This document shows, in pieces, positions 27,306-27,725 of a stretch of DNA of 64,000 nt. A program made the position numbers and the translations under genes. The stretch comes from Natronospirales bacterium (lineage in GTDB: Bacteria > Pseudomonadota > Gammaproteobacteria > Natronospirales > REEB76), in contig JAJYUH010000003.1 in NCBI GenBank assembly GCA_021792635.1, positions 101,795 through 165,794 of the forward strand, read 5' to 3'. A model generated the notes under the pieces. That model saw only the letters and a program-made list of their open reading frames with translations. It was not told where the DNA came from and searched no databases. Numbering within the stretch: the stretch's first letter is position 1; each line of letters starts with the position of its first letter.

Positions 27306-27725
27306 TCAGTGTCCCCAGCAGGTGCCGGTGTTGAGGGTGCTGCCGGCGGAGTTGGTGGCGGTTCGATTGCCGGTGTTGTCGAGGCTGAAAGTGCGGCAGT
27401 CGGTATCGTTGAGCTGGTTGCCGAGGGCGGTGGCCGTGAGGCTGTAGGTGGAAGCGGCCAGGGTATAGGTCACGGCGTAGTAGGCATATTGGGACCGGGT
27501 GGTGAGCGGCGGCGAGCAGTTGGCGTTGTTGTAGGCAAAGTACTGGGTGTAGCAGCGTTCCAGGATCTGGGAATCCTGACTGAGGAGGGTTTCCGCGTCG
27601 GAGCGGTGGGATTTCAGCACCGAACGTTCATAGGAGGGGTAGGCGATGGCGGCGATGATGCCGATGATGGCCACCACGATCATGAGCTCGATCAGCGAGA
27701 AACCACGTGTTTTATTGAGCTGCAT
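27306..27725 (-). CDS. pilE: Type IV pilin, PilE-like, cassette 3 (mosaic relative to pilE-1/2)
   Basis: Start trimmed to MQLNKTRG|FSLIELMIVVAIIG (ATG 27723-27725). The N-terminal 52 mature residues and the C-terminal DTDCRTFSLDNTGNRTATNSAG block are identical to pilE-1; the centre is different. Confidence 0.85.
   Translation of the reverse strand: MQLNKTRGFSLIELMIVVAIIGIIAAIAYPSYERSVLKSHRSDAETLLSQDSQILERCYTQYFAYNNANCSPPLTTRSQYAYYAVTYTLAASTYSLTATALGNQLNDTDCRTFSLDNTGNRTATNSAGSTLNTGTCWGH

Follow-up and report, generated by a model that had tools for sequence, protein, structure and literature searches.

We found that the three pilE genes in a 64-kb stretch of DNA from a Natronospirales bacterium (contig JAJYUH010000003.1; hereafter the window, that is, all 64,000 nucleotides analysed) are far more alike than the operons that they terminate, and we consider it likely, with a probability of about 0.8, that this is due to recurrent gene conversion (concerted evolution) among tandem pilE paralogues. 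As deduced from open reading frames (ORFs), NCBIfam and Pfam matches and the gene calls of sister contigs, the minus strand of the window carries three tandem operons of the Pseudomonas fimU-pilV-pilW-pilX-pilY1-pilY2-pilE type, with fimU present in operons 1 and 3 and absent from operon 2. In self-comparisons of the window, the operons show 67-71% pairwise identity, whereas their terminal pilE genes, spaced at intervals of 7.2-7.5 kb, show 99.1% identity between pilE-1 and pilE-2 over 464 bp (20042-20505 in pilE-2), variable centre included, and 83-84% between pilE-3 and either of the other two.

All three pilE genes are complete and lie on the minus strand. The last gene of operon 3, pilE-3 (27306-27725), encodes a prepilin of 139 amino acids with an ATG start and the leader MQLNKTRG, followed by F; pilE-1 (12600-13046) encodes 148 amino acids, with the leader MTGSGANGRPVSG, also followed by F, and a centre that we designate cassette B; and pilE-2 (20095-20553), of 152 amino acids according to the call on another contig (P0142), has the atypical leader MVFCLLPHKIVWPDAC, followed by G, and LIEF in place of LIEL. 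The leaders of the three copies are unrelated and serve to mark the locus. A class III signal peptide with a terminal Gly, Phe at +1 and Glu at +5 is found in pilE-3 (RG/FSLIE), and the motif occurs also in pilE-1 and pilE-2. The product of pilE-3 matches the N_methyl family PF07963 with 38.9 bits and ComP_DUS (PF16732) with 65.8 bits, pilE-1 scoring 67.5 bits in the latter (cutoff, 27.3), and its residues 36-137 match PDB 4NOA, the PilE of P. aeruginosa, with an E value of 1.3e-6. N_methyl and ComP_DUS domains and a match to 4NOA are common to all three terminal prepilins. From the ComP_DUS/PilE family assignment and the operon position, the three terminal genes thus encode PilE as the name is used in Pseudomonas, for a minor pilin of low abundance, and not as in Neisseria, for the major pilin. 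In an AlphaFold model (mean predicted local distance difference test score of 81), the alpha1 helix (residues 11-62) corresponds to the conserved N-terminal block described below, the variable centre to the alpha-beta loop and strands beta1-beta2, and the second conserved block to beta3-beta4; such an arrangement of conserved and variable parts is usual in type IV pilins.

The original prediction, made from the letters of this DNA, described pilE-3 as a mosaic of two blocks identical to pilE-1 around a divergent core, and both blocks are indeed maximal exact matches. The N-block (27538-27694, 157 bp, identical to 12844-13000 of pilE-1 and, over 145 bp, to pilE-2) covers the whole mature alpha1 helix; it had been said to start at FSLIE, and the identity stands, but the DNA block begins within the codon for the Leu that follows F-S, and pilE-3 encodes F, S and L by codons that are synonymous with, and different from, those of pilE-1. 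The C-block (27352-27407, 56 bp, identical to 12643-12698 of pilE-1 and also to pilE-2) encodes DTDCRTFSLDNTGNRTAT and is exact as claimed, although it ends at RTAT(N) and leaves outside the SAG that had been included. The divergent centre between them (27408-27537), which we call cassette A, is 130 bp long against 145 bp in pilE-1 and pilE-2; it does differ in length, but it is not unrelated, aligning with that of pilE-1 at 67.5% nucleotide and 43% amino acid identity with two in-frame indels. Downstream, the C-terminal tail and some 60 bp of 3' flank (27242-27351) form the end of the homology tract, with scattered single nucleotide polymorphisms (SNPs) and a 3-nt indel.

Chance identity of the 157-bp run is excluded, because none of 20000 permutations of the 67 mismatch or gap columns in the 414-column alignment produced a run of that length. 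Substitution rates differ sharply along the pair pilE-3/pilE-1: the N-block shows 0.11 synonymous (dS) and 0 nonsynonymous (dN) substitutions per site, with all four changes within the first four codons; the centre shows a dS of 0.79 and a dN of 0.33 (dN/dS ca. 0.4); and the C-terminal part shows a dS of 0.09 and a dN of 0.05. Since the divergence of the centre matches that of the surrounding operons, we take it to be retained sequence of the old paralogue, in which case the pilE-3 centre would be as old as its operon and the flanks young. The idea of a replaced core between conserved flanks is therefore probably backwards, the flanks having been homogenised around a core that stayed. The edges of the tract are sharp. 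High identity begins at the Gly codon (G-1) before the prepilin cleavage site and ends about 55 bp past the stop codon, after which the flanks are unalignable; in pilE-1 (homology tract, 12538-13010) and pilE-2, 99% identity drops to unalignable sequence at both edges. The homogenised unit is, hence, the mature coding region of pilE plus ca. 55 bp of 3' flank, and nothing else. An artefact of the window assembly as the source of the mosaic was ruled out, because two independent assemblies (L001, GCA_027440735.1, and L002, ERZ27237319) show pilE-3 with an identical make-up and identical flanking context, with one SNP (27594) in the 157-bp block.

Comparisons among close strains showed that pilE alleles turn over. 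In the natural alleles retrieved in 90% identity clusters of PilE-3 and PilE-1, the three locus-specific leaders are combined with either centre, A (pilE-3-like) or B (pilE-1-like), and likewise with either type of C-block, NRTA or NKTS. One case is a contig (L068) that is identical to the window over 7.7 kb (27595-35310) and then accumulates 39 differences within about 350 bp (27247-27594); from position 27501 (alignment column 259) to the end of the contig, its pilE-3 has the allele of the related genome YP5.bin20 at every diagnostic site. L068 is not a chimera of assembly at k=141, because the interval that contains the crossover, 101 bp, is shorter than k. A further allele, in L067, joins a B centre, a C-block of the YP5 type, a tail and 3' untranslated region of the pilE-3 type and the downstream flank of locus 2, in spans shorter than 141 nt. 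Judging from these lengths, neither the switch in L068 nor the mix of short segments in L067 could be an assembly artefact. In a four-gamete test of seven alleles, 778 of the 2346 informative pairs of sites were incompatible, and a statistic akin to the pairwise homoplasy index (PHI) was 0.123, against 0.332 +/- 0.015 under permutation, a value that none of 5000 permutations reached. L001, in turn, differs from the window at two positions in 17.7 kb, both of them in pilE genes, and both times the window has the state of its paralogues; these differences are either micro-conversions or polishing artefacts.

Two other apparent chimeras were dropped as firm evidence. The combination of a locus-1 leader with the pilE-3 centre (P0001, on L003) switches only once, inside the 157-bp repeat, which is longer than k=141, and is a probable chimera of assembly. 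The combination of a locus-2 leader with the pilE-3 centre (P0127) lies on L069, whose length of 7340 bp (7199 + 141) is the spacing of the repeats with 141 added, as is characteristic of a loop in the megahit k=141 de Bruijn graph; L067, with 7636 bp (7495 + 141), is a loop contig as well. Short-read assemblies of such loci thus yield loop and chimeric contigs, and with them spurious leader and cassette variants of PilE in protein databases.

That sequence has moved between pilin genes evokes pilE/pilS variation in Neisseria, where unexpressed, partial pilS loci donate sequence at high frequency to a single expressed major-pilin gene (PMC4877100), and which had been invoked by analogy for this DNA. 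There are true likenesses: in both cases pilin sequence is moved by gene conversion, and a conserved N-terminal domain and conserved, Cys-flanked blocks alternate with variable surface regions. A programmed, high-frequency system of this kind, in which donor copies rewrite another pilE within a clonal population for antigenic or anti-phage variation of the pilus tip, would also account for the finding, in the protein collection, of each centre cassette with more than one of the locus-specific leaders, for the significant recombination among alleles, and for the much quicker change of pilE than of the DNA around it in strains that are otherwise nearly identical. We nevertheless consider it quite unlikely. 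Unlike in Neisseria, the gene affected here encodes a minor pilin, and each copy is a whole gene in an operon: we found no silent, 5'-truncated or promoterless pilE, the three copies each having leader and N-terminus and closing a complete operon, and the suggested check for further partial pilin copies retrieved none, with no additional pilE in the 64-kb window and only two full-length loci in the nearest reference genome. Pilin variation in Neisseria relies on a dedicated 3' repeat and on a G-quadruplex (G4) element that precedes the expressed locus. The six G4 motifs in the 64 kb are neither upstream of nor near any pilE, the nearest (12264-12287) being within the glutamate-cysteine ligase gene, and the conserved 3' core probably has another origin, as detailed below. 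Furthermore, just two to three types of centre were seen, the exact PilE-3 protein occurs on six other contigs, of which two demonstrably belong to different assemblies, and the dN/dS of the centre gives no sign of positive selection. The Neisseria analogy is, hence, not supported as a mechanism, and a new mechanism of antigenic variation is not established by these data.

The conserved 3' core is a 16-nt sequence, GGTGAGTGCCGGCCGG, which had been noticed 3' of all three stops; the window holds three copies of it and no more (at positions 12560, 20055 and 27266, the last copy spanning 27266-27281), always on the plus strand, each copy being situated 24 nt past the pilE stop on the coding strand. 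In relatives, the pilE stop is followed by a typical intrinsic terminator, with a 9-bp G+C hairpin and a T run; that of YP5.bin20 is CCGGCCGGC-ACTC-GCCGGCCGG-TTTTT (-30.8 kcal/mol, z of -3.4), and equivalent hairpins with T runs follow pilE in MFD03044, clean1713, SE1507 and MFD05722. The core in the window retains the 5' arm of this hairpin and its loop, and the 3' arm has decayed to ACCAGACGG or ACCGAACGG; the sequence folds no better than shuffled sequence, and a scan for consensus promoters and terminators near pilE gave nothing above shuffled expectation, the terminator character of the core being apparent only from the relatives. In several related genomes, pilE copies share no 3' flank at all. 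Because the core is a hairpin remnant, and because the 3' flank is unshared in several genomes, we interpret it as terminator sequence hitch-hiking in the conversion tract and not as a dedicated recombination repeat. As an observation apart, the terminator is decayed in all three window copies (12547-12599, 20042-20094 and 27242-27305) and intact in related genomes; as a consequence, transcripts may run on into the following operon.

A further proposal would see the tandem pilE copies as a working system for diversification of the pilus tip and for shuffling of its modules, operating at an appreciable rate in the population under pressure from phages or predators; we regard it as unlikely. If true, intragenomic exchange would rewrite the exposed alpha-beta loop and beta-hairpin of the tip-proximal pilin, and entire PilY1/minor-pilin operons would be gained or lost through crossovers at those joints, which would fit the two clusters of relatives against the three found here. 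It would then be the first case in which recombination serves to vary a minor pilin, or a tip complex, instead of a major pilin.

The pattern is not peculiar to the window. The closest reference in GTDB, with ca. 92% identical DNA, is a metagenome-assembled genome (MAG) that carries the label Natronospirales (Gammaproteobacteria), and in eight related MAGs with tandem operons the pilE paralogues are 82-100% identical, against 65-74% for adjoining operon genes. MFD03044, on a contig of 481 kb, has a mosaic like that of pilE-3, with a perfect N-terminal run of 188 bp followed by divergence (0 of 20000 permutations). Likewise, lineage-specific oddities are common to all copies of one genome: in MFD03044 these include alpha1 substitutions of an unusual kind, and in the window a terminator arm that has decayed. 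Such sharing among copies is a mark of concerted evolution. In YP5.bin20, both pilE copies, one of them at the position of pilE-1 of the window, carry cassette A and have 100% identical coding sequences. Exact-match scans of JGI (Joint Genome Institute) metagenome contigs with a 36-nt piece of the N-block and a degenerate 41-nt C-block gave no match, and an exact look-up of the PilE-1 protein found no source contig on record.

The comparison with YP5.bin20 also bears on whether the mosaic was built chiefly from pilE segments of related lineages, taken up by transformation and inserted by homologous recombination, and less by exchange among the copies of one chromosome. Cassette A differs between the window and YP5.bin20 at just 3 of ca. 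160 positions (ca. 98% identity), whereas flanking DNA is ca. 92% identical; because the cassette is more alike than its flanks, pilE segments must also move between lineages, and the YP5.bin20 allele in the otherwise window-identical background of L068 points in the same direction. Import by itself, however, leaves unexplained why copies of the same genome are most alike in eight genomes, as well as the lineage-specific changes that all copies of a genome have in common, so that as the main source of the mosaic we deem it very unlikely. Probably, import and intragenomic conversion both operate, the former being a complement more than an alternative.

Synonymous sites separate recombination from selection. 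In eight multi-copy genomes, the window included, we tallied synonymous codon differences along the 53 codons that begin with G-1 and take in most of the alpha1 block. The protein sequence of this block is almost invariant across dozens of homologues of the clade; its DNA, by contrast, is 72-88% identical between most genomes and 90-100% identical between copies of one genome. The pilE copies of the window genome show 0-3 synonymous differences, as do those in five of the eight genomes in total, with 7-13 in the other two that have complete copies; between genomes, leaving out the sister species YP5.bin20, there are 9-24, with a mean of 17, and the window and YP5.bin20 differ at 4-6. As controls, the alpha1 regions of the three pilV paralogues of the window, which differ by 1-3 amino acids, show 6-18 synonymous differences, and the pilW and fimU paralogues show 13-16. 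The between-genome identity of 72-88% also argues against a constraint at the nucleotide level, e.g. an overlapping RNA element, on the synonymous sites of alpha1. A history without recombination, in which the identical blocks reflect strong purifying selection on alpha1 and the C-block while the centre drifts freely, agrees with the near invariance of alpha1 in the clade and with the centre being the variable part in all homologues, but it is extremely unlikely, because, of ca. 45 codons, 9-24 differ synonymously between most genomes and 0-3 within this genome, pilV paralogues with an equally conserved alpha1 are not homogenised, identity runs ca. 55 bp into the non-coding 3' flank, and pilE-1 and pilE-2 match through the variable centre too.

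The mosaic is thus, as had been proposed, the footprint of homologous recombination, to judge from the homogenised synonymous sites, the sharp edges against flanks of ca. 70% identity, the four-gamete and PHI-like tests and the allele differences between strains. Recombination, the edges of its tracts, its generality in the clade and the turnover of alleles among near-identical strains are demonstrated by the data; we infer the RecA-type mechanism, the direction of individual events and the functional rationale.

Under recurrent gene conversion, the operons would be old duplicates, now about 30% diverged, among which homologous recombination would repeatedly copy pilE in a non-reciprocal and presumably RecA-dependent manner. 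A tract would typically start at the first codons of the mature pilin and stop either in the divergent centre or in the terminator region, ca. 55 bp past the stop codon; pilE-1 and pilE-2 would have been converted over their whole length, and pilE-3 over the alpha1 block and the C-terminal part, with a centre that keeps the old cluster-3 sequence. The invariant alpha1 would keep the copies alike enough to seed recombination, and the diverged centre would tend to halt the extension of the heteroduplex, although selection may also retain it. Conversion, together with the exchange of pilE segments between related lineages, would produce the differing mosaics of sister strains, and whole modules could be gained or lost by crossing over between pilE repeats. 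As for the function, alternative tip modules that feed a single fibre would tolerate, or even favour, a common PilE, so that conversion would become fixed at pilE and not elsewhere, if PilE acts as an adaptor.

Several points weigh against this account. All the relatives compared are metagenome assemblies, in which repeats of this length do cause artefacts, and some combinations of allele and locus are unreliable owing to those in L067, L069 and L003; the window states at 27594 and 20337 could themselves be polishing errors from multi-mapping reads. Homogenisation of pilE is weaker in MFD01067 and SE1507, the two genomes with 7-13 synonymous differences, and the process is therefore not uniform.

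Concerted evolution of bacterial paralogues by gene conversion is well known, with tufA/tufB and the rRNA operons as textbook cases. The pilE genes resemble them in that paralogues of one genome are closer to each other than orthologues of different genomes, homogenisation extends to synonymous sites, the tracts stop abruptly at diverged flanks, and mosaics arise where a tract is partial. They differ in that the unit is here one small gene at the end of a repeated 7-kb operon module, the other genes of which escape, and in that tracts often end inside the gene, so that a variable centre persists. P. aeruginosa has one fimU-pilVWXY1Y2E operon. In the window there are three in tandem, one without fimU, and their pilE copies are homogenised; gene order, with pilE last, and Pfam families (GspH/FimU, PilV, PilW, PilX, PilY1, PilY2-like and ComP_DUS PilE) are as in P. 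aeruginosa (PDB 4NOA; PMC5979040), for which PilVWXY1 has been proposed to form a priming or tip subcomplex that FimU and PilE link to the major pilin (PMC5979040). The presence of several alternative sets of minor pilins and PilY1 in one genome is shared with Myxococcus xanthus, where three such clusters serve one major pilin and one machine (PMC7541494). The M. xanthus clusters, however, have four minor pilins and PilY1 each and no PilE-type gene, and are not described as tandem, nor is gene conversion reported between them (PMC7541494). In the literature on gene conversion among minor pilins, our search found only work on the major pilin of Neisseria.

In all, our results depict a clade of uncultured Gammaproteobacteria that keeps its tip operons as diverged modules, with a PilE that is continually homogenised and reshuffled. 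This natural experiment is consistent with PilE being a generic adaptor of the fibre and PilVWXY1 carrying the module-specific function, and it makes pilE a recombination hot spot and a likely joint for the gain or loss of whole tip-complex operons. In YP5.bin20 and DAIARI (L004, L008), fimU-1 directly follows the pilE of a cluster-3-like operon, which is consistent with two clusters against three. Lineages therefore seem to vary in how many tandem tip operons they have, and unequal crossover at the pilE repeats could be the cause.

The remaining genes of the three operons are all on the minus strand, and no major pilin gene was found within the 64-kb window. Operon 1 (19904-12600) is followed by the glutamate-cysteine ligase gene and contains, upstream of pilE-1 (13043-19904), six genes: fimU (19317-19904), pilV (18736-19314), pilW (17582-18733), pilX (16998-17567), pilY1 (13403-16939) and a pilY2-like gene (13043-13384). 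Operon 2 (27082-20095), ending with pilE-2, has five genes upstream of it (20714-27082): pilV (26462-27082), pilW (25302-26459), pilX (24711-25289), pilY1 (21090-24659) and a pilY2-like gene (20714-21046). Operon 3 (35289-27306), ending with pilE-3, includes in the preceding region (27754-35289) fimU (34765-35289), pilV (34176-34727), pilW (33058-34362), pilX (32461-33042), pilY1 (28203-32618) and an ORF (27754-28218).

Some differences among the modules deserve mention. The PilY1 of operon 3 (28203-32618) is longer by ca. 290 amino acids, with 1471 against 1178 and 1189 by ORF, and is called as 1385 amino acids on sister contigs; the surplus is N-terminal to the beta-propeller domain and suggests a different adhesin module. 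Among the pilV paralogues (5' ends at 19057-19215, 26795-26953 and 34494-34652), the alpha1 regions of pilV-1 and pilV-3 are 95% identical, with 6 synonymous differences, against 14-18 in the other pairs, which hints at older or rarer conversion in pilV as well. Upstream of fimU-3, before a divergent acyl-CoA dehydrogenase gene, the interval 35311-35495 holds all eight differences between L068 and the window that lie outside pilE, and also two of the four differences of L002, while the adjacent 7.7 kb are identical; this interval, in the promoter region of operon 3, may represent another site of variation or recombination.

An Rfam scan of the window retrieved only a tRNA (45318-45405, minus strand), and nothing at the 3' core of pilE or at a hairpin-rich repeat of ca. 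165 nt that is present twice in the same orientation (348-512 and 20527-20689, 80% identical). This repeat is possibly a miniature mobile element, or else a structured repeat of intergenic DNA; its second copy lies between pilY2-2 and pilE-2 and provides the start codon and the atypical leader of the latter. Two further weak internal repeats, which have no relation to the pilin genes, were also seen, at 61600-61772 and 62611-62783 (73% identity) and at 826-890 and 943-1007 (80% identity).

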